DNA of 45,940 bases from the sequence record DRR723986_8621. One strand, written 5' to 3'. Positions 715 to 42,137 of this stretch are shown here, piece by piece (the first letter of the stretch is position 1; the number at the start of each line of letters is the position of its first letter). The notes beneath the pieces were generated by a model. The model made no database searches and was not told the origin of the DNA. It worked only from the letters and a program-made list of their open reading frames with translations. Position numbers and translations under genes: made by a program.

Positions 715-741
715 ACCGGCTTCTCCTGCTTCGCCAGGGAG

Positions 742-777
742 TGCTACACTCGCGCAACATCGCATCGCGCAAGGAGG
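742..777 (+). promoter_or_regulatory. Putative extended -10 element (TGcTACACT, 742-750) and strong Shine-Dalgarno (AAGGAGG, 771-777) for the lipoprotein gene
   Basis: Direct motif match. The SD lies 5 nt upstream of an in-frame TTG at 783. Confidence 0.55.
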
Positions 778-782
778 CCGGT

Positions 783-1367
783 TTGCCTCGTATCACGTGG
801 ACCCCCGTCCTGCTGCTAGCCGGCCTGTTACTGCAGGCCTGTAGCAGCGCCCCGCAGGAAAGCCAGGTACCGCTGGATCCCAATGCCGTGCCGGAGCTCA
901 CGCTCAACCTGCCTGGTGAAGGCGGCTGCAACTGCGTAGACCAGGAGCAGCGTGACTACACTTTCCTGGAGCGCGGCTACAGTGCCCTGGCGCTGGGCGA
1001 ACACATCGATGCGGTGGAGTATTTCGAAAGCTACCGGCGCCTGGAGAAAACTCCCGAGGCGGCTTGGGAGGCTGACATGGCCATTGCGTTTATCAGCATG
1101 CTGCCCTCAAGCCCCTTCTACGATACCCGCGCGGCACGCAAAAGCTTTGTCAGTCTGGACGCGGCGCTGACAGCCAATCCGGATATGCAGGTGCACAACA
1201 AGGCCATCATCATGCGCGAGGCCCTGGAGGCAATGGTGATCATGGACCGTCATATTGCGGATCTTGAAAATGCCAACGCCACCCTCAAGGACGATCTGGA
1301 GAAGCGGGAAGAAGCCCTCAAGCGGCTGCGTGAGCTAACTCTGGGTCAGCGGGGAGCACGAGAGTAA
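783..1367 (+). CDS. Hypothetical lipoprotein with a TPR-like helical region and C-terminal coiled coil
   Basis: Start moved from GTG 741 to TTG 783 because of the AAGGAGG SD. This gives the signal peptide [20 protein letters not shown] (lipobox LQAC). The C-terminus has a heptad pattern ([28 protein letters not shown]). Confidence 0.75.
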
Positions 1368-2847
1368 AGGTAGCACCTTCTCCCGGTGCGCTGGTGACGG
1401 AGATCGTCCCACCCATCATCTCGCAGTAGTCACGGCAGATCGCCAGACCGAGACCGGTGCCGCCGTAGTTGGCGCTGGTCGAGGAATCCGCCTGGACAAA
1501 GGCTTCAAACACCCGCGCCTGCTGCGCCTTTGTCATGCCGATCCCGGTATCCTGCACCGAGAACCGGAACCAGCCTTCACGGCCCTCAACCGGCCCGGCG
1601 GCGAGACTGATATACCCCTTGTCGGTGAATTTGCAGGCATTGCTGAGCAGGTTGACGAAGATTTGCCGAAACTTGGTGGCATCGTTGTACAGGGCCGGCA
1701 GCTCGGACAGGTCAGGCAGCTGCAGCACGTTACCGCTTTCCCGCAACAGGGGTTCCAGCGATTCACAGACCTGATTGACGATTTCCCCGGGATGGAAGCT
1801 CTCACAGTGCAGTGACATCTTGCCAGTCTCGATCTTGGACAGGTCGAGGATGTCGTTGATCAGCGACAGCAACTGCCGTCCGGAGCGGATAATCTTGTCC
1901 AGGTCGCGCTGGAACTGGCTGCGATCGACCTCGTTGCTATCGTCCAGTTCGTCATGCAGCATCTCGCTGTAACCGATGATGGCATTCAGCGGCGTGCGCA
2001 GTTCGTGGCTCACGTTGGCCAGGAAGATACTCTTGGCGGCGTTGGCCTCGTCCGCAGAATCCTTGGCCTGTTGCACGTCGTAGATGGCGTTGCGCAACTT
2101 GTCCGACATGGTATTGAAGGCGCCGGCGAGATCCCCCAGTTCGCCGTCATCATCGATATTGTCGATACGGAAGTTTAGGTCGCCGCTGCCGAAACGTTCG
2201 GTGCCTCGCTTGAGGCGCTTGAGCGCCGTATTGGTATAGCGCACCAGGAAGAAGCCGAGCATGGCGGTGAGGAAAATCGACGCGAAAAAGCCGATGACGG
2301 TGATGCGGTCGGTGAGGGCGATGGTCCGGTCGATGATGTTGGCGCGCTGCACCGAGATAAATGCCTGGCGTTGTTCCAGTTCTTTCAGGCGCTGGCTTGC
2401 CTCCAGGTAGGGAATAGGGTCATCGACGTCCGGCTCAAAGCTGGGGTCGTTATAGTTTCGGTAGAAGGCGGACCAGCTATCGAGCAGGGCGCCGCTGCTG
2501 GTGGACAGCCGCTGGTACTGCAGCTCTGTAACATCGGGGCTGAGGGTGCCGAGCGCGCGAACCTTGCTGCTTATGGTGTCGATATCAGTAATCGCCTGCG
2601 CCAGTTCCTGCGCGTCGAGCTGGTCCTCGGTGGTCTCGCGCAGGGTCGCCAGCACCAGGATCTGCTGGCGCTGGGCGTCGAGCAACTGCTCCACTTCGGC
2701 GGATAACTGGGCGGCTTTCACCGCATCGCGGTAGGCCACCATACTCTCGTTCCGCGCGAAGCTGCCCCAGAAATGGGTGCCGACGTTGACCGCGAACAGC
2801 ACCAGGATGGTGAACAGGGAGAGAGTAAGGCGTCGACGCAAGCTCAT
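1318..2847 (-). CDS. Membrane sensor histidine kinase (TM-periplasmic-TM-HAMP-HisKA-HATPase)
   Basis: Two hydrophobic segments; HAMP ([15 protein letters not shown]); H-box [19 protein letters not shown]-box [11 protein letters not shown]1 DTGIGM; F-box FEAFVQAD; G2 GGTGLGL. Confidence 0.95.
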
Positions 2848-3218
2848 GCGCGGGTCAGCTTCTCGATCTTGATCAGCAGTCCGGGGAAATCGATGGGCTT
2901 GGTGGCATAGTCATCGCAGCCGGCATCGAGGGCGCTGAGCCGGTCCGCTTCCATGGCGTGGGCGGTAAGGGCGATGATCGGGATATGGGCGATGCTCTCA
3001 TCCTCCCGCGCCCGCCGACAGGCCGTCCAGCCATCCATCACCGGCAGGTTCATGTCCATCAGCACCACCGATGGCTGGTGGCTGCGCATCTTGTCCAGCG
3101 CCTGCTGGCCATCTTCCGCCGGGATGACGTCGATGCCCGCCCGGTTCAGTCGCCGGATCAGCATGTCCCGGTTGAGTTCGTTGTCCTCGACCAGCAGGAC
3201 GGGGCCCTTGTTGCTCAT
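2844..3218 (-). CDS. Single-domain response regulator (DivK-like receiver)
   Basis: VLLVEDN, phosphoacceptor [16 protein letters not shown] and KP motifs. It has 4-bp overlaps with both neighbouring genes. Confidence 0.93.
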
Positions 3219-4690
3219 GCCAGCGGCGCCTCGATTCGGTGGACCACAACCATCTGGTTGATGCCCTTGACCTTGAGTTCCCGGCTGTCGAGGACCTGGT
3301 AGGGACTGGTCAGCTTGGCCAGGGTCGCATCGGATACGAGGATTTCCCCGCCCTCGCTGAGGTCCTCGATGCGTGAGGTCAGGTTCATGGGGTGGCCGAC
3401 GAAGCCGTATTTGCTGCGTCTTTCGGAGCCGATATTGCCGGCGATAACCTTGCCGGTGTTCAGGCCGATGCCGGTGGCGATTGCGGGCAGGCCCTCGGCT
3501 TCATTCTCCCGGTTGATGGCAGCCATGGCCGCCTGCATCTCCAGGGCGCAGCGGACTGCGCGCTCGGCGTCATCCTCGCGTCGCTGGGGTGCGCCGAACA
3601 CCGCCAGGATGGCGTCGCCGATGAATTCGTCGATGGTGCCCTGATGGGCCAGGATGATGTCGGTCATCGCGCCCAGGTAGCGGTTGAGCATGGTCACCAC
3701 CTGGGCCGGTGCCAGGTGTTCGCTGAGGGTGGTGAAGCCGCGGATATCCGACATCATGATGGTGACCTCGCGCAGATCGCCGCCCAGCTCCAGGCCTTCG
3801 GGGCGCTCCAGGATATCGGTAACGATCTCGTCGGACAGGTAGCGACCGAAGGTAGCGCGGATGAATTTTTCGTTGCGCTCCAGCTGCTGGCGATACTGCT
3901 CTTCCCGGTCGTGCCAGCGCTTGCGCTCGATGCCCGCCTTGATCCGGGCCTGCAACAGTACCGGGTTGAACGGCTTGAACAGGTAATCATCGGCCCCGGC
4001 CTCGATGCACTCGATGATGCCATCCATGTCCTGGCGCCCGGAGATCACGATTACCGGGGTGGCGCGCCACTCCGGGTGCTCTTTGATCCGGCGCAGGACT
4101 TCGCGCCCGTCCATCCCGGGCATGACCAGGTCAAGCAGCACCACGTCGACATCGGATTCGTCCAGCGTGGCCAGCGCTTCCTCGCCGCTGGCCGCGGTGA
4201 CCACGAAATGGCCGCTGCGGGACAGGTAGCGGGCCACCAGCTCGCGATTCTCCTGCAGATCGTCCACGGCGAGGATGAAACCGGGCTCCGAGTTGATGGA
4301 GCGTCGTTCGGCGGCGCTGTCGGGCGCGGTTTCCTCGCTGTGCGCGGTATGCACCGCTTTCACCAGGCGTGCCAGGTTGTCTGCCAGTGGCTGGTTCTCG
4401 GGGCCGAGATCTTCCTGCAGCATTTCGGCATAGCCGCGGATCGCCGCCAGCACGTTCATCAGGTCGTGGGTAGAGGCATCCGACTGTGGACCTGCGAGCA
4501 AGCCTTCAAGGCGGGTCGCGCCCTCGAACAGGTGGCTGAAGTCGTCCCGGGCGGCCTCATCCAGCCGCTCCTCGGCGCTGCTGAACAGGTCCCTCAGCTC
4601 CGCGATCGCGCGCAGCAGGACGTCACTCCACAGGGTGTTGGCCTGGGTATCGCTGGTCGTCACTGGCTTTGTGGCGCTCCGCTTTTTCAA
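3215..4690 (-). CDS. Receiver-fused class III nucleotide cyclase with an N-terminal DHp-like segment; probable guanylyl cyclase (start codon uncertain)
   Basis: REC domain (AVDD, LLDLVMP, KP). Cyclase motifs MSDIRGFT, IDEFIGD, GNIGSERRSKYG, NLTSR and KVKG. Confidence 0.92.
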   Translation of the reverse strand: MKKRSATKPVTTSDTQANTLWSDVLLRAIAELRDLFSSAEERLDEAARDDFSHLFEGATRLEGLLAGPQSDASTHDLMNVLAAIRGYAEMLQEDLGPENQPLADNLARLVKAVHTAHSEETAPDSAAERRSINSEPGFILAVDDLQENRELVARYLSRSGHFVVTAASGEEALATLDESDVDVVLLDLVMPGMDGREVLRRIKEHPEWRATPVIVISGRQDMDGIIECIEAGADDYLFKPFNPVLLQARIKAGIERKRWHDREEQYRQQLERNEKFIRATFGRYLSDEIVTDILERPEGLELGGDLREVTIMMSDIRGFTTLSEHLAPAQVVTMLNRYLGAMTDIILAHQGTIDEFIGDAILAVFGAPQRREDDAERAVRCALEMQAAMAAINRENEAEGLPAIATGIGLNTGKVIAGNIGSERRSKYGFVGHPMNLTSRIEDLSEGGEILVSDATLAKLTSPYQVLDSRELKVKGINQMVVVHRIEAPLA

Positions 4691-4855
4691 TATCGAGAGT
4701 ATAACGAGGCGAGCAGAGCTGTGGAAACGCTGAAGTTGTTCGTTTCATTGATCAGGAAGCGGATAAACGCCGGCGAAAGGTACGCAGTTCGGCGTGTTTG
4801 GGTTATTATCGGTGCCGAGCTAAAGGACAAGGCTTTGCACAGGGCGGGTTCGTAC

Positions 4856-5503
4856 ATGTTGCAGCAAGTAGAAATATTTCAGGGGCTCTCTCAGGAGGAG
4901 CTGGAGGCCCTGTCAGCCAGTAGCACCAATCGCTCCTTCCCCAAGAATACCGTGGTCATCCATGAGAATGATCCCGCGGACTCCCTGTTCGTGATCGAGA
5001 GCGGTAAGGTCAAGGTGTACTGCAGCGACAAGAACGGCAAGGAGTTCATCATGAACACCCAGGGCGCCGGCGACTACTTTGGCGAACTGGCCCTGCTGGA
5101 CGACTCCACCCGCTCGGCGTCGGTACGTACGGTTGAGAAATCCTCCTTCTGCATCATCTATAAGGAAGACTTTAACCGGGTACTCGATGAGCACCCGAAT
5201 ATCGGCCGCAAGCTGATCCGCAACCTCGCCCAGCGGGTGCGCAAGCTGACGGCAGACGTCAAGAGCCTCGCCCTGCAGGACGTGTATGGCCGGGTGGCCA
5301 ATGTACTGATGGACCTGTCGGAAGAGCGGGGCGATGGCACTCTGTACATTCCCGAGAAGCTGACCCAGCAGGACATCGCCGACCGGGTGGGAGCCTCCCG
5401 GGAAATGGTGGCACGTATCCTCAAGGACCTGACGATCGGCGAGTACATTCGCTTCGAGGGTCGGCATATCATCATCAATACGCGGCTGCCGGCCAAGTAC
5501 TGA
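4856..5503 (+). CDS. CRP/FNR-family transcriptional regulator (cNMP-binding domain + HTH)
   Basis: The real start is ATG 4856 inside the 703-aa ORF. Phosphate-binding cassette FGELALLDDSTRSA; HTH TQQDIADRVGASREMVARILKDL. Confidence 0.93.
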   Translation: MLQQVEIFQGLSQEELEALSASSTNRSFPKNTVVIHENDPADSLFVIESGKVKVYCSDKNGKEFIMNTQGAGDYFGELALLDDSTRSASVRTVEKSSFCIIYKEDFNRVLDEHPNIGRKLIRNLAQRVRKLTADVKSLALQDVYGRVANVLMDLSEERGDGTLYIPEKLTQQDIADRVGASREMVARILKDLTIGEYIRFEGRHIIINTRLPAKY

Positions 5504-5519: not shown

Positions 5520-6911
5520 CTAGTCGCCCCCGCTGGCTTCATCCTCGTCCGCTGTCACACCAGTCACCTCGAGCTGCAGTCTGCCTTTCGCCAGGCGCGC
5601 TTTGAGCGGCTGTCCAGCCGTCGCCTGCGCCGCATCACTCACCACCTTGCCCTCGGTATCAGTGATGATGGCATAGCCCCGTTGCAAGGTGGCCAGCGGG
5701 CTCAGTGAGTCCAGCATCTGGGCGAGGTGGGCGAGTTGCGCACCGGCCGTTTCCAGGCGCTGGCGCATGGCGGCTTCCATGCGCTGTTGCGATGAACCCA
5801 GATCCTGCTGGAGCCGCCGGATGCGCGGTAGAGGGGATTGTGTCTGCAGTCGGCTCTCAAGCAGTGCCAGCTGTTGCCGGCGCTGGCGCATGGCATTGCG
5901 CTGCGCCAGGATCAGGCGCTGCTCCAGGTCATCCAGGCGCTGTGCCTGTTCCCGCAGCAGGGCACCCGGGTGCTTCAGGCGCCGCCGCAGGTGGTCCAGT
6001 TCCCTCGCGGCGTCCGCCAGTTTGCGCCGCATCTGCCGTTCCAGGGCCTGTTCCAGGGTGCGCAGCTTTTCCAGCCACTCCCGCTGGTCCGGGCTGAGCA
6101 GTTCCGCCGCCGCTGAGGGGGTGGGCGCGCGGTGATCGGCGACCATGTCGGCGATACTGAAATCGATTTCATGTCCCACGGCACTGACCACCGGCAGCTC
6201 GCTGGCAGCGATCGCGCGGGCCACACTTTCCTCGTTAAAGGCCCACAGGTCCTCCAGCGAGCCCCCGCCACGGCCCACGATCAGTGCATCGAGATCGATT
6301 TTCCCCTCGCGCTGCAAGCGGTTGGCCAGTTCTATAGCGGCGCAGATCTCGCCGGCAGCGGCATCACCCTGGACGGCCACCGGGATGATGTAGACCTCGA
6401 TGGAGGGGCAGCGCCGCTTGAGCACGGTCAGGATGTCGTGGATCGCCGCGCCGGTAGGTGAGGTAATCACCCCGAGGCGGGATACGGACGCCGGCAGGGG
6501 CTTTTTGCGGGCCGGCTCGAACAGGCCTTCGGCGAGCAGTTTGGCCTTCAGCTGCTCAAAAGCGAGCTGCAGGGCCCCGGCGCCGGCGTGCTCCAGGTGT
6601 TCCACGATCAGCTGGAACTCGCCGCGACCCTCGAACAGTGAGACCCGGCAGCGCAGGCGCAGGTGGTCCCCGTTTGCGGGCTGGAAGCGGATCCGCTGAT
6701 TGCGATTGCGGAACATGGCGCAGCGGACCTGCGCATCCCCGTCCTTGAGGGAGAAATACCAGTGGCCGGAGGAGGGTGCGGCGAAATTCGATACCTCGCC
6801 CTCTACCCAGACGAAATCGAAATGGCTCTCCAACAGGGTGCGGGCCTGCCGGTTGAGCTGGCTGACGGTCAGGATCTGGGGGGGCGGCGCGTCGCCGAAT
6901 GGATTAGACAC
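5520..6911 (-). CDS. xseA: Exodeoxyribonuclease VII large subunit
   Basis: VEGEVSNF..SGHWYFSLKD, GRGGGSLEDLWAFNEE, GHEIDF, TPSAAAE. Divergent from guaB, as is typical in Gammaproteobacteria. Confidence 0.97.
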   Translation of the reverse strand: MSNPFGDAPPPQILTVSQLNRQARTLLESHFDFVWVEGEVSNFAAPSSGHWYFSLKDGDAQVRCAMFRNRNQRIRFQPANGDHLRLRCRVSLFEGRGEFQLIVEHLEHAGAGALQLAFEQLKAKLLAEGLFEPARKKPLPASVSRLGVITSPTGAAIHDILTVLKRRCPSIEVYIIPVAVQGDAAAGEICAAIELANRLQREGKIDLDALIVGRGGGSLEDLWAFNEESVARAIAASELPVVSAVGHEIDFSIADMVADHRAPTPSAAAELLSPDQREWLEKLRTLEQALERQMRRKLADAARELDHLRRRLKHPGALLREQAQRLDDLEQRLILAQRNAMRQRRQQLALLESRLQTQSPLPRIRRLQQDLGSSQQRMEAAMRQRLETAGAQLAHLAQMLDSLSPLATLQRGYAIITDTEGKVVSDAAQATAGQPLKARLAKGRLQLEVTGVTADEDEASGGD

Positions 6912-6932
6912 GATTAGCGAGTGTGGAGTTTA

Positions 6933-6962
6933 TTTACCTGGGGCAACGCAAAGATTTATAAT
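6933..6962 (+). promoter_or_regulatory. Putative sigma70 promoter of guaBA
   Basis: Perfect TATAAT at 6957-6962 with a TTTACC -35-like hexamer at 6933-6938. Confidence 0.5.
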
Positions 6963-7001
6963 TGCACGTTTAACCTCGACCCGCCAGCCGGAGACGCCTG
7001 T

Positions 7002-8471
7002 ATGTTGCGCATCGCCCAGGAAGCCCTGACATTTGATGACGTTCTTCTGCTGCCCGGCTTTTCCGACGTGGTGGCGACCGATGTGTCACTGCGCACCCGG
7101 CTAACCCGCGGGATTGACCTGAACATCCCGCTGGTATCCGCGGCCATGGATACCGTCACCGAATCCCGGCTGGCTATCGCCCTGGCCCAGGAAGGCGGTA
7201 TCGGTATCATCCATAAGAGCATGACCATTGCCGAGCAGGCCGAGCAGGTACGCAAGGTCAAGAAATTCGAAAGCGGCGTGGTCAAGGACCCGATTACCAT
7301 CCAGCAGGATGCGACCATCGGCGAGCTCACCGAGATTACCGCAGCGCACGGCATCTCCGGGCTGCCGGTGCTGGATGGTGAGGACCTGGTCGGTATCGTG
7401 ACCCGGCGTGACCTGCGTTTCGAATCCAATCCCCTGAAGCGGGTGTCTGAGGTCATGACGCCCCGCGACAAGCTGGTAACGGTCAAGGAGGGCGCCAGCA
7501 CCGAGGAAGTCCAGCGCCTGCTGCACCAGCACCGGATCGAGAAGATCCTGGTGGTGAATGACAATTTTGACCTGCGCGGCATGATCACGGTGAAGGACTT
7601 CGACAAGGCCGAAAGCTTCCCCGACGCCTGCAAGGATTCCTATGGCCAGCTGCGGGTAGGTGCCTCGGTTGGTACCAGCCCCGATACCGATGACCGGGTC
7701 GAGGCATTGGTGCGCGCCGGGGTGGACGTGCTGGTGGTCGACACTGCCCACGGCCACTCGAAGAACGTGATCGACCGGGTGCGGATGATCAAGGCAGACT
7801 ACCCATCGATCCAGGTTATCGGCGGCAATATCGCCACCGCGGCAGCGGCGTTAGCCCTGGTGGATGCCGGAGCGGATGGCGTCAAGGTCGGTATCGGCCC
7901 CGGGTCGATCTGCACCACCCGGATTGTTACCGGCACCGGCGTACCGCAGATCACGGCGATAGCCAACGTGATGGAAGCGCTGCGCAACACCGATGTGCCG
8001 ATTGTCGCCGATGGTGGGGTGCGCTTTTCCGGTGATGTCGCCAAGGCGATCGTTGCCGGTGCGCATTCGGTGATGATGGGCAGTATGTTCGCCGGTACCG
8101 AGGAAGCGCCGGGCGAGGTCGAGCTCTACCAGGGTCGGACCTACAAGGCCTATCGCGGCATGGGTTCGCTGGGCGCCATGTCCCAGACCCAGGGTTCTTC
8201 GGATCGCTATTTCCAGGATGCGAGCAAGGGCATGGAAAAGCTGGTGCCGGAAGGCATCGAAGGCCGGGTGCCCTACAAGGGTCCGGTCTCGGCGATCATT
8301 CACCAGCTCATGGGTGGCGTTCGCTCCGCCATGGGCTATACCGGCAGTCGCGACATCGAAACGATGCGCAGCCGGCCGGAATTCGTGCGGGTCACGGCAG
8401 CGGGCATGTCCGAAAGCCACGTACACGACGTATCGATTACCAAGGAAGCGCCGAATTACCCGGTCAGGTAG
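7002..8471 (+). CDS. guaB: IMP dehydrogenase
   Basis: Start [16 protein letters not shown] at ATG 7002; CBS pair; catalytic [11 protein letters not shown]. Confidence 0.98.
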
Positions 8472-8522
8472 CCTTGACCGGGCCGTCCGGCCCTCACACA
8501 GCGCTTAGCATCGGGAAATTCA

Positions 8523-10100
8523 GTGACCGCAGACATCCATGCCCAGAAAATTCTCATCCTGGACTTTGGCTCCCAGTACACGCAGTTGATTGCCCGCCGG
8601 GTGCGCGAGGTTGGCGTATACAGCGAGATTCGTGCCTGGGATATGCCGGAGGCGGAAATCCGGGAGTTCAACCCCAGCGGGCTGATTTTGTCCGGTGGCC
8701 CCGAATCGGTTGCCGATCTGGACTCACCCCGGGCCCCGGCCTGTGTGTTCGAGCTGGGTATCCCGATTCTGGGTATCTGCTATGGCATGCAGACCATGGC
8801 CGAGCAGCATGGTGGCAAGGTCGCCTGTTCCAATGTCAGCGAGTTTGGCTACGCCCAGATACGGCAGGTCGGCAACGGCGGCTTGCTGCACGATATTCGT
8901 GACCATATAGATGCGAACGGCAGGGGCTTGCTCGATGTCTGGATGAGCCACGGCGACAAGGTCGTAGAGCTGCCTGAGGGCTTTGAAGTCATCGCTGAGA
9001 CTGACAGCTGCCCGATCGCCGGCATGGCGCACCGGGAGAAGCCCTGGTTCGGTATCCAGTTCCACCCAGAGGTCACCCATACCCTGCAGGGCAAGCGTAT
9101 ATTCGAGCACTTCGTCCAGGAGATCTGTGGCTGTGAAGTGCTCTGGACCCCGGCCAATATCGTCCAGGACGCTATTGACCGGGTCCGGGAACGGGTTGGC
9201 GGTGACAAGGTGCTGCTGGGACTGTCGGGGGGTGTTGATTCCTCGGTGGTGGCCGCGCTCCTGCATCGGGCAATTGGCGACCAGCTGACCTGCGTGTTCG
9301 TGGATAACGGCCTGCTGCGCCTGCACGAGGGCGACCAGGTGATGGACATGTTCGCCCGCAACATGGGCGTGAAGGTTATTCGCAGCGACTCCGAGGAACT
9401 GTTCCTGTCGCGCCTTGCCGGGGTCGCCGACCCGGAACAGAAGCGCAAAATCATCGGCAATACCTTCATTGAGGTGTTTGATACCGAGGCGGCCAAGCTG
9501 CAGGAGGTCAAGTGGCTTGCCCAGGGCACCATCTACCCCGATGTGATCGAATCCGCCGGCGCCAAGACCGGCAAGGCCCACGTGATCAAGTCCCATCACA
9601 ACGTCGGCGGCCTGCCCGACGATATGGCCTTTGAGCTGGTCGAACCACTGCGTGAACTGTTCAAGGACGAGGTGCGCCAGATCGGCCTGGAACTGGGCCT
9701 GCCCTACGACATGGTGTATCGCCACCCGTTCCCGGGCCCGGGTCTCGGGGTGCGCATCCTCGGCGAGGTGAAGAAGGAGTACGCGGAGCTGCTGCGTCAG
9801 GCAGATGCGATCTTTATCGAGGAACTGCATGCCGCCGACTGGTACCAGAAGACCAGTCAGGCCTTCGCCGTGTTCCTGCCGGTCAAGTCCGTCGGCGTGG
9901 TGGGAGATGGTCGCCGCTATGAGTACGTGATTGCCATCCGTGCGGTAGAGACGGTCGATTTCATGACCGCGCGCTGGGCGCACCTGCCCTACGAACTGCT
10001 GGAAAAAGTATCCAACCGTATCATCAACGAAATCTCTGGCGTGTCGCGGGTGACCTACGACATCAGCAGCAAGCCGCCGGCGACGATTGAGTGGGAATAA
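8523..10100 (+). CDS. guaA: GMP synthase (glutamine-hydrolysing)
   Basis: [36 protein letters not shown]-terminal KPPATIEWE. Confidence 0.98.
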
Positions 10101-15892: not shown

Positions 15893-17329
15893 TTACAGGG
15901 CCCGCAGCCCGTTACCGCTAACACTGTCCGGTACGAAGGCTTCCAGCGCCAGCGGCGGCTGCGCCTGCAGGTCCGGAATATCCTGCCATTGCAGGATGTT
16001 GTAGTAGTGGCGGATGTTCTGCACGTAGGTCACCGCCTCCTGGCCCCGGGCATAACCGTAGCGCGTCTCCAGGTAATGGGGGCTTTTCTGCAGCAGCGGC
16101 AGATGTTCCATGAGGTCCTGCCAGAGATGCGGGTCGCCACCGCGGCGCTCCGTCAGCACCCGACCATCTTCCAGGTGGCCCAGGCCGATATTGTAGGCCG
16201 CCAGGGCCAGCCAGGTGCGATCGGGCTCGTGGATATCGCGGGGCAGGCGGCGTTTCATGTTCTTGAAGTAGCGTGCGCCACCGCGCAGGCTCTCCCGCGG
16301 GTCGGTGCGGTTTTTTACTCCCACCTCGCGCGCGGTTGCATTGGTCAGCATCATCATCCCCTGCACGCCGGTGGGTGATTCTGCTGTCGGATCCCAGTGT
16401 GATTCCTGGTAGGCGATGGCCGCCAGCAGGTGCCAGTCCAGTTGGTATTCCTCTGCCACTTCCCGGATCAGGTCCCGGTACTCCGGCAGCCGGCTGCGCA
16501 TATTCATGGCAAAGGTGTGCGAGCCAATGCGGTTGACCGTATCCGCGTGCCCGAAGTTCAGGTCCTCCAGTCGCGCCAGAGTGCCGTTTTCGCGCAAATT
16601 GCCAAGGAAGTCGTTGATTTCTTGCTGCAGGTCCGACGCATCGCCGTTGCCGGCCAGGTACCACACCAGGTCCTGCTCGGAGCCGAGGTCGAAACCGACT
16701 TTCAGGCGAGGGTACAGGCTTTGCTGCACGCTGAACTCATTGGAGTCGACAATGGCCACATCGGCTTCACCGGCGTCGATCAACTCCAGAAGCACCATAG
16801 AGTCGACGCCCTCCACCTCTTGCCACTCCAGCGAGGGGAACCCGGTTTCTCGCAGCGCAGCCATGGCGCTGGCATGGCTGCTGCCGCGCAGGACGACCAG
16901 GCGTCGGCCCTGCAGGTCCTCGATTTCACGGGGGCGCCGTTTGCCGGCCCGATAGATTGCCTGGGGCCGGATGCTGGCATAGGCGGTGGAGTGGGCATAG
17001 CGGGCCTCCCGCTCTCCGGTCAGGGTGAGCCCGGCGGCTGCAAGATCGGCCTCGCCCCGGTCGAGGCTGGTGAAGATGTCATCCAGGCTGAACGCAAGCT
17101 GTACCCGCAGCTCCACCCCAAGATCCTCCGCCAGCAGCCGCGCAAGGTCGTACTCGAAGCCGGCCTCGCCGCCGTCTTCCTGGTAATAGGTCGTGGGGCT
17201 GCTGCGGGTCACCACCACCAGCTCGCCCCGCTGCTGTATCTGCTGGAGGCGATCCGGGTCGGCACAGGCTGCCAGCCCGCCAACAAGGACCAGCCACAGG
17301 GCAATCTTGGTCAATTTGCTCCCTCGCAT
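15893..17329 (-). CDS. mltF: Membrane-bound lytic murein transglycosylase F
   Basis: N-terminal substrate-binding-protein domain (GFEYDLA) plus SLT domain (AYQESHW, GMMMLT, AAYNIG, YGYARG.EAV.YV.NI); divergent from purL. Confidence 0.95.
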
Positions 17330-17401
17330 GGCCTGATTCTAGCCCCAATCCGGCCGCTGAGGCTGCGGCACAATTACCGTGGCCTAAACCCCGGAATTCG
17401 G

Positions 17402-17430
17402 TTAACGATGTCGCTGCAAGCCGGTACAAT
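17402..17430 (+). promoter_or_regulatory. Putative sigma70 promoter of purL
   Basis: TTAACG (17402-17407), 17-bp spacer, TACAAT (17425-17430). Confidence 0.55.
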
Positions 17431-17470
17431 ACTGCCCTTCTCGAATTCCCCCGCTGGAGCGCTGTACTGC

Positions 17471-20400
17471 ATGCTCATCCTCCCCGGATTGCCGGCACTG
17501 TCCGCTTTTCGCCTGGCCAAGCTGGGCCGTAAACTGGGCGCTATTCACCCGGACATTCACCTGCTGCACACGGCTTACATGCATTTCGCCGACCTCGAGG
17601 CGGAGCTGTCGCCCCCTGAGCAGGAGATACTGCAGAGTTTGCTGGAATACGGCCCCGGGAGCGGGGTCCTCCACGGGGCGCAGTCCGGTGACCCCGGTGA
17701 TGAAACTTTGCTGCTGGTCGTTCCCCGCCCGGGGACTATTTCGCCCTGGTCGAGCAAGGCCACGGATATTGCCCACAGTTGCGGTCTGGACAAGGTCCGG
17801 CGCCTCGAGCGAGGGCTCGCCTACACCCTGGCTCTGCCGGCAAACGCCACCCCGGATATCCGGCGGCAGGTTGCCGAACTGCTGCATGACCGCATGACCG
17901 AGGCAGTGTTGACCGATGCCGGTGAGGCGGCGAGCCTGTTTCACCGTGCCGCGCCGGCGGCCATGACCCAGGTCGACGTACTGGCCGGGGGGCGCGATGC
18001 TCTGCAGCGGGCCGATCGGGAACTGGGCCTGGCCCTGGCGGGCGATGAGATCGACTATCTCGTGGACAGCTTCATCGCCCTGGGTCGCAATCCCAATGAC
18101 GTCGAACTGATGATGTTTGCCCAGGCCAACTCGGAACACTGCCGGCACAAGATTTTTAATGCCAGCTGGACTATCGACGGGGAAGACCAGCCGCTGTCGC
18201 TGTTCAAGATGATCCGCAACACCCACGAACAGGGTGGGGAAGGGGTCCTGTCCGCTTATTCCGACAATGCTGCCGTGGTGACCGGTCACCGGGCCGGGCG
18301 CTTCTACCCCGACCCCCAGACCGGCGAGTACGGCTTCTCCAGCGAGGATATCCACCTGTTAATGAAGGTGGAAACTCACAACCATCCCACCGCCATAGCG
18401 CCTTTCCCCGGTGCCGGTACCGGCTCCGGTGGCGAGATTCGCGATGAGGGGGCCGTGGGGCGTGGCTCCAAGCCCAAGGTGGGCCTTACCGGCTTCTCCG
18501 TTTCCAATCTTCGCATACCCGATTTCCAGCAGCCCTGGGAAATGGAGTACGGCAAACCCGGAAGAATCGTCTCCGCGCTGGACATCATGCTCGAGGGGCC
18601 GATCGGTGGTGCCGCCTTCAATAACGAGTTCGGTCGCCCCAACCTGTGCGGTTATTTTCGCAGCTTCGAGCTGCCGGCTCCCGGGCCTGAAGGCGTCGAG
18701 GTGCGGGGCTACCACAAGCCCATCATGATTGCCGGTGGCTACGGTAATATCCGCGGCGAACACGTGGAGAAAGGCACGTTTCATCCCGGCGCGAAACTGA
18801 TTGTGCTCGGCGGGCCCGCGATGCTGATCGGTCTCGGCGGCGGGGCGGCGTCTTCCATGGCCAGCGGATCCAGTCACGAAGACCTCGATTTCGCCTCGGT
18901 CCAGCGCCAGAACCCGGAAATGGAGCGTCGCTGCCAGGAGGTTATCGATCGCTGCTGGCAACTGGGCGAGGATAACCCGATTGCCTTCATCCATGATGTT
19001 GGCGCTGGTGGCCTGTCCAACGCGCTGCCGGAACTGGTCAAGGACGGCGGCCGCGGCGGGCGCTTCGAACTGCGTGCGGTGCCCAACGATGAGCCCGGGA
19101 TGTCGCCGCTGGAGATCTGGTGCAACGAGTCCCAGGAACGCTATGTCATGGCGGTGGAGCCGGACAACCTGGCACGCTTTGAAGCGATTTGCGCCCGCGA
19201 GCGCTGCCCCTTCGCGGTAGTGGGCGAGGCGACGGCGGAACAGCACCTGGCTCTCGCCGATGCGGAATTCGGCAATGCCCCGGTTGACCTGCCCATGTCG
19301 GTGTTATTCGGCAAGCCGCCCAAGATGCACCGCAGTGCCAGTCGCGCGCAAATTGCCCACAGTCCCTTGCAGGTAAACCCGGAACCCGCTGATGCCCTGG
19401 AGCGGGTGTTGCAGCTGCCGACAGTGGCGAGCAAGCAGTTTCTTATTACCATCGGTGATCGCACCGTGACCGGCATGGTCGCGCGTGACCAGATGGTCGG
19501 TCCCTGGCAGGTACCGGTGGCGGATTGTGCGGTGACCACCGTGTCTTATGACAGCCACGCGGGGGAAGCCATGGCTATGGGTGAACGCACCCCGCTGGCA
19601 CTGCTGGACGGCCCGGCCTCGGGCCGCATGGCGGTGGCAGAGGCGATCACCAATATCGCTGCCGCGCCAATTGCCCGGCTCGCCGATGTGCGCCTGTCCG
19701 CCAACTGGATGTGTGCTGCCGGGCATGGCGCCGAAGATGCGATCCTGTTTGATACGGTGCGCGCGGTGGGCATGGATTTCTGCCCGGCACTGGGAATTAC
19801 CATCCCGGTTGGCAAGGACTCCATGTCCATGCGCACTACCTGGGAGCAGGACGGTGAGCAGCGTGCGGTTACCGCACCGGTGTCGCTGGTCGTGTCGGCA
19901 TTTGCCCCGGTCCTTGATGCCCGGCTGGTCGCCACCCCGCAACTCGACAGCGCTCATGACCAGCACTTGCTGCTGCTCGATCTTGGCCGTGGCGCCAACC
20001 GGCTGGGCGGCTCCGCCCTGGCCCAGGTGTATGGTGAACTGGGTGACCGGGCACCGGACATCGAGAATCCGGCCGACCTGGCCGCGTTTTTCGAGTTCGT
20101 CCAGGGCCTGCTGCAGGATGGCCTGCTGCAGGCCTACCACGATCGCTCCGACGGTGGCCTGGCTGTCACCCTGCTGGAAATGGCCTTCGCCGGGCACTGT
20201 GGCCTGGAAGTGGATCTGGCGGCTTTGTCAGGCAGCACCCTCGAGAAGCTGTTCACGGAGGAGGCTGGTGCCGTGTTGCAGGTGTCCGCCGCCCAGTTGG
20301 ACAACTGCCGCGAGCGCGCCGCAGCGCTGGGCATCGCCGACTGCCTGCACGTTATTGGCAGGGCCGTCCCGGGGGATGAGGTCCGGATCCTCAATGGCAG

Positions 20401-21376
20401 CGAAACTGTGCTGCAGGACAGCCGCGCACGCCTGCAACAGCTGTGGGCGCGCACCAGTTTTGAAATCCAGGCGCTACGCGATAACCCCGAGTGCGCCGCA
20501 GAGGAGTTCGCGGCCCTGGCGGAAGAGGATCCCGGTCTCTCGGTCAGTCTGAGTTTTGACCCGGACGAGGACATTGCTGCACCGTATATTGCCCGCGGCG
20601 TGCGTCCCGCGGTGGCGATCCTGCGGGAGCAAGGCGTCAATGGGCAGGTAGAGATGGCGGCGGCATTTCACCGGGCCGGCTTTGCGGTGCACGACGTGCA
20701 TATGAGCGATCTGCTCTCCGGCCGACGCGACCTGACGGCTTTCAAGGGTCTGGTCGCCTGTGGCGGTTTTTCCTTCGGTGACGTGCTGGGTGCGGGTGAG
20801 GGCTGGGCCAAGAGTATTCGCTTCAACGAACCGCTGCGGGAGCAGTTCAGCCAGTTCTTCCATCGCGCCGATACCTTCACCTTGGGCGTCTGTAACGGCT
20901 GTCAGATGGTGTCCACGCTCAAGGATCTCATTCCCGGGGCGGAGCACTGGCCGCGCTTCCTGCGCAATCGTTCCGAGCAGTTCGAGGCGCGGTTTGCCCT
21001 GGTGCGGGTCGAGGAGTCGCCGTCGCTGCTGTTGCAGGGCATGGCGGGATCACACCTGCCGATCGCGGTGGCGCACGGTGAAGGCCGGGCGGAGTTTGCC
21101 GACGAGCAGGCGGGGGTGGATTGCGAGGCCGCAGGCCTGGTGTCCATGCGCTACCTCGACAACGCGCTGCAGGTCACCGAGCGCTACCCGGCCAATCCAA
21201 ACGGTTCGCCAGCGGGCATTACCGGTCTGTGTAGCCTGGACGGTCGCGCGACCATCATGATGCCGCACCCGGAGCGGGTATTCCGCAGTGTCCAGTGCTC
21301 CTGGGCGCCGGGCGAATGGAGCGAAGATGGCGGCTGGATGCGCCTGTTTCGCAACGCCAGGCGCTGGCTGGACTGA
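17471..21376 (+). CDS. purL: Phosphoribosylformylglycinamidine synthase (large, fused type)
   Basis: Real start is ATG 17471 ([14 protein letters not shown]). Motifs [30 protein letters not shown] and MMPHPER. Confidence 0.98.
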
Positions 21377-24472: not shown

Positions 24473-25876
24473 ATGAAGAGCCCCCTCGGTTTTAAACAGT
24501 CCAGACTCAGTGCCGCAATCGGCTTCGCGGCGATCATGCTCGGCAGCGGTACCGCGCTGGCGCAGCCTGCAGTGGTAACGGAGGCGACAGAGGAAGCCTT
24601 CCAGGCGGCCCTGAGTTCGGGAGCCCGGGAGATTGTTATCGCCACCGAAGGCCCTATCGTGATCGACGACACCCTGACCTACGATGGTGATGATTCCCTG
24701 TCCATTTATGGTGCAGGTCAGACCATTGAGGCTGTGGCCGATGTCACCCTGTTGGAAGTCAGCAACGGCGCCAACCTCACGGTAGTTGGTCTCAACTTCC
24801 AGGGCCTGGGTGGCTTCGATATCGACAACCAGGGTAATGGCAAGGGTATCTTTGTCGACGTGCGTGACAACCAGAATGGGCTGGTCAAGCTCGTTCTAAA
24901 GGATGTTGCCGTGCGCGATGTGGCCAACCACGGGATACATGTGTCCGATTGTGACCTCGCCGATGATTGTGGTGGCGGCAGTGGCGGCTCAGGTGGCGGT
25001 TCATCCGCGTCGATTGTGGTCGAACTGACTAATGTCACCGTCGAAAACGCGGGTACCGGCAGGTTTGATGCCGACGGTGTGCGCGTGGATGAACGGGCCA
25101 ACGGGAATATCCTGTTTCGGGCCGACGGCTCTGTGTTTACTGGCGTTGGTGCCGACGGGGTAGAACTTGACGAAGGCCAGAACGGTATCGTCGAGGCGAT
25201 CGTCAGCAATAGCAAATTCAACAATAACGGCAGCTACTGCGCGCCGGTGGCGGAGTTTGCCGGGGAGCGTAAGGACATTCCCGCAGGTGAGCTCACGGTC
25301 GCGGAGTTCGAGGACACGATTGTCCCCTCCGGCACGGCAGATGATCGCTGCTTCGAAGTTGAATTCGACACCCATGAAGACGGCACGATCAGCGACTATG
25401 AGGTCGCGCTGGACCTGGACGACGGCTTCGATATCGATGAGGCCGGCAACGGCGGCCTGAGGGCGCGGGTGTTTAACTCCGAGGTGCTCGACAATGATGA
25501 TGAGGGCCTGGATTTTGACGAGGAAGACAACGGTCCGATCGATCTGGTGGTGGTGAATACCAATGCCTCCATGAACACGGATGACGGCATCAAGCTGTCC
25601 GAGGAGGATAGCGGGTATGTGCAGGTCCTGTTGCTCTCGGTACAGGCCATGGATAACGGCGGCAAGGGGTTTGTCTTCGAGGAAGCCGATGCGGGTGATC
25701 TGGACGCCACTGTTGAGGGTAGTGCAACCGCCGGCAATGATGGTGGTGATGTGGGTGTCGAGGCGGTGCAGGAAGACCAGGGTGTCGGCCTGCTGACTCT
25801 GCGCAACACAACGGTCGAAGAAACCGACAAGCAGGACGGCGTTGACGTCGACGGTGTTGAGCTGGTTGTTGACTAA
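24473..25876 (+). CDS. Secreted, highly acidic hypothetical protein; probable right-handed parallel beta-helix
   Basis: Sec signal peptide ending ALA-Q; GGAG SD. Repeated DG(V/F/L/I)x(V/L/I/F)(D/S)E motifs with N/G/V beta-helix-like periodicity. Confidence 0.75.
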   Translation: MKSPLGFKQSRLSAAIGFAAIMLGSGTALAQPAVVTEATEEAFQAALSSGAREIVIATEGPIVIDDTLTYDGDDSLSIYGAGQTIEAVADVTLLEVSNGANLTVVGLNFQGLGGFDIDNQGNGKGIFVDVRDNQNGLVKLVLKDVAVRDVANHGIHVSDCDLADDCGGGSGGSGGGSSASIVVELTNVTVENAGTGRFDADGVRVDERANGNILFRADGSVFTGVGADGVELDEGQNGIVEAIVSNSKFNNNGSYCAPVAEFAGERKDIPAGELTVAEFEDTIVPSGTADDRCFEVEFDTHEDGTISDYEVALDLDDGFDIDEAGNGGLRARVFNSEVLDNDDEGLDFDEEDNGPIDLVVVNTNASMNTDDGIKLSEEDSGYVQVLLLSVQAMDNGGKGFVFEEADAGDLDATVEGSATAGNDGGDVGVEAVQEDQGVGLLTLRNTTVEETDKQDGVDVDGVELVVD

Positions 25877-37870: not shown

Positions 37871-38269
37871 GTGCCCGGTTCGAATGCCACGCCCGACCTG
37901 AACAGCCGTGAACACATCGAGCGCTTCGTCGACCTGTTCTATGGGCGCATGCTCAAAGACCCAGAGCTGGCGCCGATCTTTATCGACGTGGCCGGCATCG
38001 AGCTCGACGTCCACCTACCGCATATCAAGGACTACTGGTGCAAGCTGCTCCTTGGGGAGCAGGCCTACCGCCGGCACACGATGAATATCCATCGCCAGCT
38101 GCACGGCAAGCGCCCGCTGCAGGCGCAGGATTTCGATCGTTGGCTGGCGCTATTTACCCGCACGGTGGACGATCACTTTGCCGGGGAGCGCGCCGAGCGT
38201 GCCAAGCAGGTGGCGGCCTCGATTGCCGCCAATATGCAGAAGAGCCTGCCGGGCCGGGTCGAAGATTGA
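37871..38269 (+). CDS. Group III truncated haemoglobin
   Basis: FVDLFYGRMLKDPELAPIF, HLPHIKDYW, a proximal His, and FDRWLALF..TVD..F.GE.AE; 132 aa. Confidence 0.85.
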   Translation: MPGSNATPDLNSREHIERFVDLFYGRMLKDPELAPIFIDVAGIELDVHLPHIKDYWCKLLLGEQAYRRHTMNIHRQLHGKRPLQAQDFDRWLALFTRTVDDHFAGERAERAKQVAASIAANMQKSLPGRVED

Positions 38270-41274: not shown

Positions 41275-42137
41275 TGGAACAGATAATCGGGGCCACTGGC
41301 CTCAGGCGCAGTTTTGGTGATCTTCACGCGGTAGACGGGGTCGACCTGTCAGTAACTGCGGGGAGCGTAATTGGACTGATCGGACCTAACGGCGCAGGCA
41401 AGACGACCTTGCTACGGGCGCTGCTGGGGCTTACCCATTTTGACGGCGATGTCTCCGTGCTGGGGCGCGATCCACGGACCGAGCGTGCGCGGTTGATGGA
41501 AGAAGTGTGCTTCATAGCCGATACCGCGGTGCTGCCGCGCTGGATGCGGGTCGACCAGCTGCTGGACTATGTCACCGGCATCCACCCGCGCTTCGACCGC
41601 AGGCAGGCGGAGGAATTTCTGGCCACAACGGAAGTTACCCCGCGCCGCAGGGTGCGTGACCTGTCCAAGGGGATGACGGTGCAGCTGCATCTCGCTCTGG
41701 TTATGGCGATCGATGCGCGCCTGCTGATCCTCGATGAGCCCACCCTGGGCCTGGATATCCTGTTTCGCAAGCGCTTCTTCGAGCAGTTGCTCAACGATTA
41801 CTTCGATGACGAACGGACCATCATTATCTCCACTCACCAGGTGGAGGAGGTCCAGAATATTCTCACCGAGGTCATGTTCATGGACCGGGGCAAGCTGGTA
41901 TTGCAGCAGCCTATGGCCAACCTGGAAGAGGATTTCATCGAACTGCACGTGGTTGGCGACAAGGTTGCACAGGCGGAGTCCATCCCGCATGTCGGGGTCC
42001 GTAGCATCCTCGGTGGCAAGGCGATCATTTACGAGGGAGTGCCGCGCGACATGCTGGCCCAGCTCGGTGAGCTGCGCACGCCGTCCGTGTCCGACCTGTT
42101 CGTGGCCAAGGTAGGGGGGGAACATAACCATGGCTGA
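41274..42137 (+). CDS. ABC-2-type exporter ATP-binding protein
   Basis: Walker A GPNGAGKT, signature LSKGM, Walker B LILDEP, STH. Confidence 0.95.
   Translation: MEQIIGATGLRRSFGDLHAVDGVDLSVTAGSVIGLIGPNGAGKTTLLRALLGLTHFDGDVSVLGRDPRTERARLMEEVCFIADTAVLPRWMRVDQLLDYVTGIHPRFDRRQAEEFLATTEVTPRRRVRDLSKGMTVQLHLALVMAIDARLLILDEPTLGLDILFRKRFFEQLLNDYFDDERTIIISTHQVEEVQNILTEVMFMDRGKLVLQQPMANLEEDFIELHVVGDKVAQAESIPHVGVRSILGGKAIIYEGVPRDMLAQLGELRTPSVSDLFVAKVGGEHNHG

Follow-up and report, generated by a model that had tools for sequence, protein, structure and literature searches.

A receiver-fused cyclase with a Cya2-like active site, probably a guanylyl cyclase, encoded beside a CRP-family regulator in marine gammaproteobacteria

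Which cyclic nucleotide is made, and which protein reads it, are the questions raised by a class III cyclase gene on the minus strand of DRR723986_8621, a DNA stretch of 45,940 nucleotides referred to here as the window. The first-pass annotation, made from the letters alone, had proposed that this enzyme carries guanylyl-type specificity residues like those of Synechocystis Cya2, and our analysis supports this interpretation, with a Cya2-like pair of residues on the right positions. The locus encodes a marine gammaproteobacterial response-regulator-fused cyclase which probably makes cyclic GMP (cGMP) and not the adenosine counterpart (cAMP); cGMP is the probable product because the active site matches that of Cya2 and because the gene lies beside its own CRP-type regulator. 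The best named homologues of the cyclase protein are from Halieaceae, and the genome-level counts given below come from relatives' genomes. Parts of the window also occur in marine metagenomes (nine runs, all of DNA type, belonging to four studies), and no RNA run is listed. The cyclase gene and its parts are as follows.

3215..4663, minus strand: cyclase gene; translation from the conserved GTG (4663) gives 482 aa (open reading frame (ORF) list, translation and Pfam).
3251..3772, minus strand: class III cyclase catalytic domain, residues 307-480 (Pfam, PDB alignment and fold match).
Codons in the catalytic domain, minus strand: Asp315, 3746-3748; Glu355, 3626-3628; Asp359, 3614-3616; Lys427, 3410-3412; Gly429, 3404-3406; Asn436, 3383-3385; Arg440, 3371-3373.
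3773..3940, minus strand: long helix and cyclase transducer element (residues 251-306); FGRY lies at 3839-3850.
3941..4276, minus strand: receiver (REC) domain, residues 139-250, with phospho-acceptor Asp187 at 4130-4132 (Pfam 6.5e-30).
4331..4654, minus strand: N-terminal four-helix bundle with a HisKA-type H-box, His75 at 4466-4468 (predicted model).
4698..4727, minus strand: promoter-like site of the cyclase operon (TTTCCA, 18 bases, TATACT), a consensus match only (consensus scan).

The ORF list gave the gene as 3215-4690 with a TTG start at 4690 and 491 aa, and residue numbers throughout refer to this 491-aa translation (P0001). The GTG at 4663, ten codons into the listed frame, is conserved across 78 aligned intergenic regions, as are both promoter-like hexamers, and the end of the predicted -10 hexamer is 8 bases ahead of the TTG. 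Because the promoter-like site and the GTG are both conserved we placed the start at 4663, which appears likelier than 4690; orthologues are mostly 480-485 aa long. Pfam matches to the protein were Response_reg (6.5e-30), Guanylate_cyc (1.2e-28) and HisKA (6.2e-4), and the class III nucleotidyl cyclase profile PF00211 scored 100.4 bits, above its cut-off of 21.9. The whole protein was modelled with AlphaFold2 (mean predicted local distance difference test score 85.9); in the model four N-terminal helices (13-42, 45-66, 71-94 and 97-120) precede the receiver fold, after which come one long helix (243-281), one short one (287-295) and finally the cyclase.

Reading of the minus strand together with the translation confirmed the residues on which the earlier proposal rested. 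The Glu of GTIDEFIGD is encoded by GAA at 3626-3628 (Glu355) and the Gly of RSKYGFVG by GGC at 3404-3406 (Gly429), while the metal-binding aspartates (Asp315 in SDIRGFT and Asp359 in the GD pair) and the Asn/Arg pair of NLTSR (Asn436, Arg440) are intact. Residues 288-491 were then used as a phmmer query against all PDB sequences. Two entries ranked far ahead, 6fht (a phytochrome fused to Cya2 E488K, 9.6e-58) and 2w01 (Synechocystis Cya2, 2e-54), and the next natural enzymes were CyaB (3r5g, 9.9e-34) and CyaC (1wc0, 3.3e-28). The alignment with 2w01 was ungapped over 185 residues (positions 14-198 of the domain fragment) with 91 identities (49%), and 2w01 reads 'gtidefmgd' and 'ekrtkygvvg', so that the Cya2 motifs given in the first-pass annotation were correct.

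Using Cya2 numbering from Table 1 of PMC6005667, with the chain offset fixed at Asp448, Cya2 residues Asp448, Arg450, Glu488 and Asp492 correspond to Asp315, Arg317, Glu355 and Asp359 of the query, and Gly562, Asn569, Arg573 and Lys608 to Gly429, Asn436, Arg440 and Lys475; all eight are identical. The alignment which the annotation had called for therefore placed Glu and Gly exactly on both specificity positions (Glu488 and Gly562), with neither displaced, and Lys427-Tyr428 match the 'ky' preceding the Gly in Cya2. Engineered 6fht has Lys at the Glu position ('gtidkfmgd' in the phmmer output), as do CyaB ('gtidkfvgd') and CyaC ('gtvdkfvgd'), both of which have Thr at the position of the Gly. 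When superposed on 2w01 the model of the cyclase protein gave a root-mean-square deviation of 1.5 A over 187 columns with a template modelling score of 0.90 (target) and 49% identity. Among natural solved structures Cya2 comes closest both in sequence and in fold, with only the engineered E488K fusion 6fht ranking higher, and the catalytic domain is, on every sequence and fold criterion examined, of the Cya2-type subgroup.

What this type implies for the substrate can be judged from Cya2. The enzyme strongly prefers GTP, and a Glu-Gly pair separates it from adenylyl cyclases with Lys-Asp/Thr; a Lys is described as assisting the Glu, and the Gly as acting sterically together with a Tyr (review, PMC6005667). 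These supporting residues would be the ones matching Lys427 and Tyr428. The single change E488K was reported to make Cya2 ATP-specific, both forms converting the other nucleotide to a minor extent only (Etzl et al., PMC5995499), and since E488K alone turns Cya2 into an adenylyl cyclase the Glu matters. Cya2 has also been described as a working cGMP source inside Escherichia coli (PMC10127613). We are rather confident, on these residue matches, that the window enzyme would prefer GTP over ATP.

Conservation of the site was followed in a set of 81 sequences, made up of the window protein and 80 orthologous loci; all 80 best genome loci carried Halieaceae-type or unclassified gammaproteobacterial titles. 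Asp315, Arg317, Glu355, Asp359, Lys427, Tyr428, Gly429, Asn436 and Arg440 were invariant (81/81), and the position of Lys475 held Lys in 61 sequences, Arg in 19 and a gap in 1. That Glu355 and Gly429 are kept in every sequence is more than chance. In 20 distant orthologues, which come from further genomes of the order and share 37-56% identity, the Glu was again present in all, so that it is invariant in 101 of 101 orthologues examined, and the Gly in 17, with Ala in the remaining 3. The domain was also searched against 1.84 billion cluster representatives (50% identity), and the best 150 proteins yielded 155 alignable domains. The first and second specificity sites of these were Glu/Gly in 129, Glu/Ala in 10, Glu/Ser in 6 and Glu/Thr in 1, giving Glu at the first position in 146/155; the remainder had Lys with various second residues (6) or other combinations (3). 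As the annotation had warned, generic naming hides this type: orthologues are titled 'adenylate/guanylate cyclase domain-containing', 'class 3 adenylate cyclase' or 'response regulator'.

A control was provided by the remaining class III cyclases of Halieaceae. The same procedure returned Lys...Asp in 17 complete and 2 partial rows, Arg in 1 row and degenerate sites in 6, and Glu/Gly in all 11 receiver-cyclase rows; because Lys/Asp paralogues of the same family were recovered, the alignment tells both types apart. A quick maximum-likelihood tree was built from 200 domains. It gathered the Glu-type rows in one group of 181 (178 of them Glu-type; Shimodaira-Hasegawa-like approximate likelihood ratio support 93), and the 13 Halieaceae Lys/Asp paralogue rows included sat across a long branch with 100% support. 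The sample for this tree was picked by similarity to the query, and it is therefore uninformative on the superfamily as a whole. The Lys two residues ahead of the second specificity site (Lys427) was found in 176 of 178 Glu-type domains, and Lys or Arg at this position in 0 of 19 Lys-type domains, a covariation which would fit the supporting Lys of the review.

The cyclase is followed by two further genes of its operon.

2844..3218, minus strand: REC2, a lone receiver of 124 aa, whose ATG overlaps the cyclase stop codon (Pfam 7.3e-27).
1318..2847, minus strand: membrane histidine kinase (HAMP-HisKA-HATPase) of 509 aa, whose start overlaps the REC2 stop (Pfam).

Cyclase, REC2 and kinase genes were found together in 80 of 80 loci, and among the 20 distant loci REC2 follows the cyclase in 17 and the kinase is present in 16. 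The receiver within the cyclase protein scored 104 bits in Pfam and carries the residues expected of such a domain: the phospho-acceptor Asp187 is invariant (81/81, and 20/20 distant orthologues), and the acidic pair Asp143/Asp144 and the conserved Lys239 are nearly so (at least 90% conserved). The linker of residues 251-306, which contains FGRY, is the best conserved part of the protein (mean 0.98 over the 81 orthologues); FGRY is described as the conserved motif of the cyclase transducer element (Etzl et al., PMC5995499). In REC2, Asp12, Asp55, Thr85 and Lys107 are invariant in 34 sequences. On this arrangement it is likely that cyclase activity is controlled by receiver phosphorylation.

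In four genomes the operon does not lie beside the CRP gene described below (loci L164-L167, in G064, G007, G112 and G074); there the cyclase open frame is longer (629-685 aa) and a third receiver-like gene comes after the kinase. Between lysS and the kinase, and convergent with the kinase, lies an ORF (741-1367, plus strand) for a 208-residue protein with a lipoprotein-like N-terminus, which has no Pfam match and is kept in 77/80 loci at 38-61% identity.

On the other side of the cyclase, a regulator gene is transcribed divergently.

4856..5503, plus strand: CRP2, a CRP-family regulator of 215 aa, divergent from the cyclase (cNMP_binding 1.2e-26, HTH_Crp_2 1.9e-12).

An antisense open frame of 703 codons (3392-5503, plus strand) crosses the cyclase gene and continues in the frame of CRP2; the CRP2 gene takes up just the final 215 codons (ATG at 4856), and the remainder is a spurious long ORF of the sort that a 62% G+C genome yields. 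CRP2 was present in 77 of the 80 loci, the three misses being loci that end at a contig edge, and its identity across Halieaceae is 90-98%, compared to 69-80% for the cyclase. Its best solved relatives were actinobacterial Crp proteins (3e-32), to which it is nearer than to CAP (about 1e-25), Vfr (3e-23) or Clr (9e-22), and with 33% identity to E. coli CRP it is, by sequence comparison, distinct from classical Crp. It was the top match to cNMP_binding (cyclic nucleoside monophosphate binding) in each of five genomes, and the equivalents of CAP Gly71, Glu72, Arg82 and Ser83 are kept in 77/77 and 15/15 orthologues, as are those of Arg180, Glu181 and Arg185 of the CAP helix-turn-helix. At CAP positions Thr127-Ser128, on the C-helix, CRP2 proteins have Leu, Ile or Met and then Thr.

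To see how far the pairing extends, 121 genomes of the order were sampled, with full-length cyclase orthologues taken at E <= 1e-78 and CRP2-like genes at E <= 1e-30. A full-length cyclase orthologue was found in 23 genomes, 22 of which also held a CRP2-like gene, and the two genes were adjacent and divergent in 18 of these 22, down to identities of 46% (CRP2) and 37% (cyclase). All 20 genomes with a CRP2 of at least 59% identity hold the cyclase at E <= 1e-108. Of the 22 pair-holding genomes, 11 also have a class I adenylyl cyclase, and an E. coli-type Crp (62-65% identity) was found elsewhere in the genome in all five of these 11 that were checked. The cyclase of one of the five is identical to a protein named Oceanicoccus sagamiensis at NCBI; other named relatives of the cyclase are from Spongiibacteraceae and Dasania. 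A classical cAMP pair and the cyclase/CRP2 pair thus coexist, and the latter looks like a second, separate circuit, as expected if the two circuits use different nucleotides. From the conserved pairing we slightly favour CRP2 as the receptor of the cyclase product.

Just past CRP2 (5520-10100) lie xseA, guaB (IMP dehydrogenase) and guaA (GMP synthase), so that the putative GTP-using signalling locus adjoins genes of guanine nucleotide synthesis. Placement of xseA beside guaBA is a common gammaproteobacterial arrangement, and the nearness to the signalling locus is therefore probably coincidence.

The reading as a whole, that of a phosphorylation-gated guanylyl cyclase feeding a dedicated CRP, seems to us reasonably likely on this comparative evidence. 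A number of observations weigh against it, and these are set out here with the alternatives to which they belong. The first concerns the substrate in general, since the preference proposed for the window enzyme is based on about 49% identity to one characterized enzyme.

The alternative which survives best concerns the N-terminus. The four-helix bundle may be a dimerization scaffold only, with the kinase phosphorylating Asp187 directly and REC2 acting as a phosphate sink; class III cyclases must dimerize, and helices of the DHp (dimerization and histidine phosphotransfer) kind do so. The HisKA match of the window protein (residues 74-108, 6.2e-4) scored 20.2-23.3 bits, below the Pfam cut-off of 26.9, and fold searches with the N-terminal model gave generic four-helix bundles, with no histidine phosphotransfer (Hpt) or DHp domain among the matches listed (Foldseek best E 0.083; VIA-align top Z 12.9, in a range common for helical bundles). 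Among the 20 distant orthologues 3 have no alignable His-box region and 1 has Gln in place of the His, and many related receiver-cyclases are without any N-terminal domain. However, His75 is invariant (81/81), as is the H-box (H-D/E-x-x-N ... G-Y-x-E), in a region otherwise poorly conserved (0.42), and a HisKA match at E <= 0.01 was obtained for 29 of 30 orthologous N-termini, 4 of which also matched the helical model of the Spo0B phosphotransferase. Pfam was also run on 96 (the shortest) of the 150 nearest representatives, which revealed a receiver in 44, HisKA with receiver and cyclase in 8, GAF in 9, PAS in 5, CHASE2 in 4 and HAMP in 3; in one relative a true Hpt domain (6.8e-15) replaces the His-box bundle. 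This replacement is the strongest indication of a role in phosphate transfer for the N-terminus, as opposed to one confined to holding the dimer together. We regard the scaffold explanation as a serious contender, though somewhat short of probable, and hold the opposite proposal, a four-step relay through His75, to be plausible but equally doubtful.

The second alternative accepts a cyclase that makes cGMP and denies that CRP2 is its receptor, the two genes being neighbours by inheritance and CRP2 having another ligand or none. The whole neighbourhood, housekeeping genes included, is syntenic within the family, so that adjacency there is weak evidence, and the order-level genomes are kin, so that the pair counts are not independent events. 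The two genes are apart in 4 of the 22 genomes, and G074 has the cyclase with no CRP2 at E <= 1e-30. No CAP-type palindrome (TGTGA-N6-TCACA, at most 3 mismatches) was found in the cyclase/CRP2 intergenic region of the window, and the same scan of four other loci gave weak matches only, in two of them. The binding pocket is not indicative either. The cGMP-specific regulator CgrA is described as having Arg-Thr in the phosphate-binding motif, and SYCRP1, with Leu-Asn on the C-helix, as binding cAMP (PMC10187061), while T127L and T127I are reported as ligand-relaxed CRP* alleles (PMC2743635, PMC11445507). CRP2 has Arg-Ser in this motif, as in cAMP-binding CAP, and does not share the Arg-Thr of CgrA; this lowers the case for membership of the CgrA group, as judged from the motif, but not that for cGMP binding. 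The Leu at the position of CAP Thr127 occurs also in SYCRP1 and in CRP* alleles, and hydrophobic residues here are typical of the latter, so that the pocket of CRP2 does not point to cGMP; Leu at this position had been considered as a cGMP marker, since a T127L mutant reportedly responds to cGMP, and was dropped for the same reason, as SYCRP1 with Leu binds cAMP and T127L is a CRP* allele. Against this alternative stand the persistence of the divergent pair to 46%/37% identity in 18/22 genomes, the presence of the cyclase in 20/20 genomes with a close CRP2, and the rank of CRP2 as top cNMP_binding match in five genomes with its phosphate-ribose contacts kept. We think it unlikely that CRP2 is a mere neighbour, though with more in its favour than the alternative which follows.

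The last alternative arises from a puzzle in Halieaceae. Searches for a class I adenylyl cyclase were positive in 0 of 151 genomes of the family compared to 59 of the 121 sampled from the order, the five Halieaceae genomes searched for a CYTH cyclase yielded none, and about half of the family (76/151 by our count) has a single class III match only. An E. coli-type Crp (55-60% identity) is present in 4 of the 5 Halieaceae genomes checked, and in three of the five (G002, G003 and G005) it occurs with the Glu/Gly enzyme as the only cyclase found; if Crp needs cAMP in these three, the Glu/Gly cyclase is its only known source. Either Crp of Halieaceae works without cAMP, or an unrecognized cyclase exists, or the Glu/Gly enzyme also makes cAMP. 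That the enzyme is, despite Glu/Gly, an adenylyl or dual cyclase supplying cAMP in vivo, a view to which the retention of CAP Glu72, Arg82 and Ser83 in CRP2 would also be congenial, is nonetheless improbable, for Cya2 is reported to need E488K for ATP use, the Glu is invariant in all 101 orthologues, true Lys/Asp cyclases are present as separate paralogues in the same family, and outside the family the pair is kept beside a class I cyclase and canonical Crp, which a second cAMP source explains poorly.

The preferred reading, a phosphorylation-gated guanylyl cyclase paired with its own CRP, can be compared with the systems already described. Cya2 of Synechocystis PCC 6803 (2w01), the first bacterial guanylyl cyclase, has an approximately 49% identical domain with the same Glu/Gly, Lys-Tyr, catalytic residues and fold, and is described as having an FGRY transducer element upstream of its catalytic domain. 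As described, however, Cya2 sits in the membrane and has its CHASE2 sensor outside the cell, whereas the window protein is cytoplasmic, with a His-box bundle and receiver, in an operon with a further receiver and a kinase; no cGMP receptor is known for Cya2 according to the account in PMC10187061, whereas the window cyclase is paired with a CRP gene. In the 2c-Cyclop proteins of Chlamydomonas and Volvox a guanylyl cyclase comes right after a receiver, as in the window protein, and mutagenesis is reported to have shown that the cyclase is switched on by His-to-Asp phosphotransfer to that receiver (PMC6284317), a precedent for the control proposed here. These are described as eukaryotic proteins in which rhodopsin, kinase, receiver and cyclase form one chain of 2200-2500 aa; the window system differs in its separate kinase, an extra lone receiver and a His-box domain without kinase.

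Two bacterial systems resemble the locus in gene arrangement. In Rhodospirillum centenum the GcyB/GcyC cyclase genes are linked to a CRP-family gene whose product CgrA is described as activated by cGMP (PMC10187061). The R. centenum cyclase is reported to share with XC_0250 an Ala at a specificity site and a Leu for the catalytic Asn (PMC3770947), and so is not of the Cya2 type, and CgrA, known here by description only, has Arg-Thr and a longer binding domain, where CRP2 has Arg-Ser and, on its C-helix, Leu-Thr. In Xanthomonas campestris the guanylyl cyclase XC_0250 is encoded beside the cNMP-binding effector XC_0249 (PMC3770947). XC_0250 is described as being without the catalytic Asn/Arg pair and as having TPR repeats, and XC_0249 as a cNMP-GGDEF enzyme, not a transcription factor, which reads guanine by an Asn-Glu dyad. 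The window protein lacks the marks given for the GcyA/XC_0250 type (Ala at a specificity site, Leu and Ala for Asn and Arg; PMC3770947), having Asn436, Arg440 and Glu/Gly instead. Pseudomonas aeruginosa CyaB (3r5g) and Spirulina platensis CyaC (1wc0), both class III adenylyl cyclases, share fold and catalytic residues with the window cyclase but have Lys/Thr at the specificity positions, and the extra cyclases of some Halieaceae have Lys/Asp, where the window protein has Glu/Gly.

The mechanism that we propose on this basis is as follows. The protein would be a cytoplasmic Cya2-type class III cyclase, most likely converting GTP to 3',5'-cGMP, with two subunits forming a head-to-tail dimer, as in its homologues. 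By the same homology Asp315 and Asp359 would hold two metal ions, Asn436 and Arg440 would stabilize the transition state, Glu355, backed by Lys427, would read the guanine, and Gly429 beside Tyr428 would leave room for it. Domain order and operon structure suggest that a signal from the periplasm or the membrane is sensed by the HAMP kinase of the downstream gene and that the phosphoryl group passes either directly to Asp187 or by a relay from the kinase His to REC2 Asp55, His75 and then Asp187. The phosphorylation state would reach the catalytic dimer by way of the long helix and then the FGRY transducer element, and the cyclic nucleotide would be read by the divergently encoded CRP2, as its conserved pairing suggests, which would then bind DNA.

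Other genes of the window lie outside this system. The ORF at 43238-45226 (minus strand) encodes a 662-residue two-domain reductase, with an NAD_binding_4 'male sterility' domain and a short-chain dehydrogenase, and is similar to the fatty acyl-CoA or aldehyde reductases by which fatty alcohols are formed. A small gene for a bacterial-like (truncated) globin (37871-38269, plus strand) comes directly after that of the GTPase der/engA. Three ORFs on the plus strand (15989-16378, 24473-25876 and 42130-43173; 129, 467 and 347 residues) have coding-like G+C at third codon positions and no Pfam match at E <= 1e-5. As listed, the purL ORF (16430-21376) starts about 380 codons ahead of the first purL domain, and the true start is probably later.

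Among the papers listed for Cya2, bacterial guanylate cyclases, Halieaceae cyclases and receiver-guanylate cyclases we found no description of this combination, those listed for the last subject dealing with c-di-GMP or other matters, although the survey of Ryu 2015 may include receiver-fused Glu/Gly enzymes. As far as we have seen, what is new is the combination of a kinase-less His-box bundle joined to receiver, transducer and Glu/Gly cyclase with an operon containing a receiver and kinase and with the pairing to a CRP subfamily. The cyclase/CRP2 system is conserved across Halieaceae and neighbouring families and hidden behind generic annotation; names of the 'adenylate/guanylate cyclase' kind conceal a large Glu-type clade.

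Bacterial cGMP systems that have been worked out are a handful: Cya2, the R. centenum Gcy/CgrA system, Xanthomonas XC_0250/XC_0249 and Sinorhizobium meliloti Clr. If the reading given here is true, a Cya2-type cyclase, a candidate receptor and a candidate input kinase would stand together in one compact conserved locus. We suggest, tentatively, that a dedicated cGMP circuit operates beside the classical cAMP-Crp one in Halieaceae, Spongiibacteraceae and their relatives, with a membrane kinase at the head of a His-Asp-His-Asp relay whose third step is a kinase-less His-box in the same chain as the cyclase and with the hydrophobic-Thr CRP2 as reader. In Halieaceae, which have lost the class I adenylyl cyclase, cyclic mononucleotide signalling may depend mainly or solely on this circuit. 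The locus is found in cultivable marine gammaproteobacteria, namely Haliea, Halioglobus and Pseudohalioglobus (as loci) and Oceanicoccus and Dasania (as named proteins), in which a bacterial role of cGMP would then be open to ordinary genetics.

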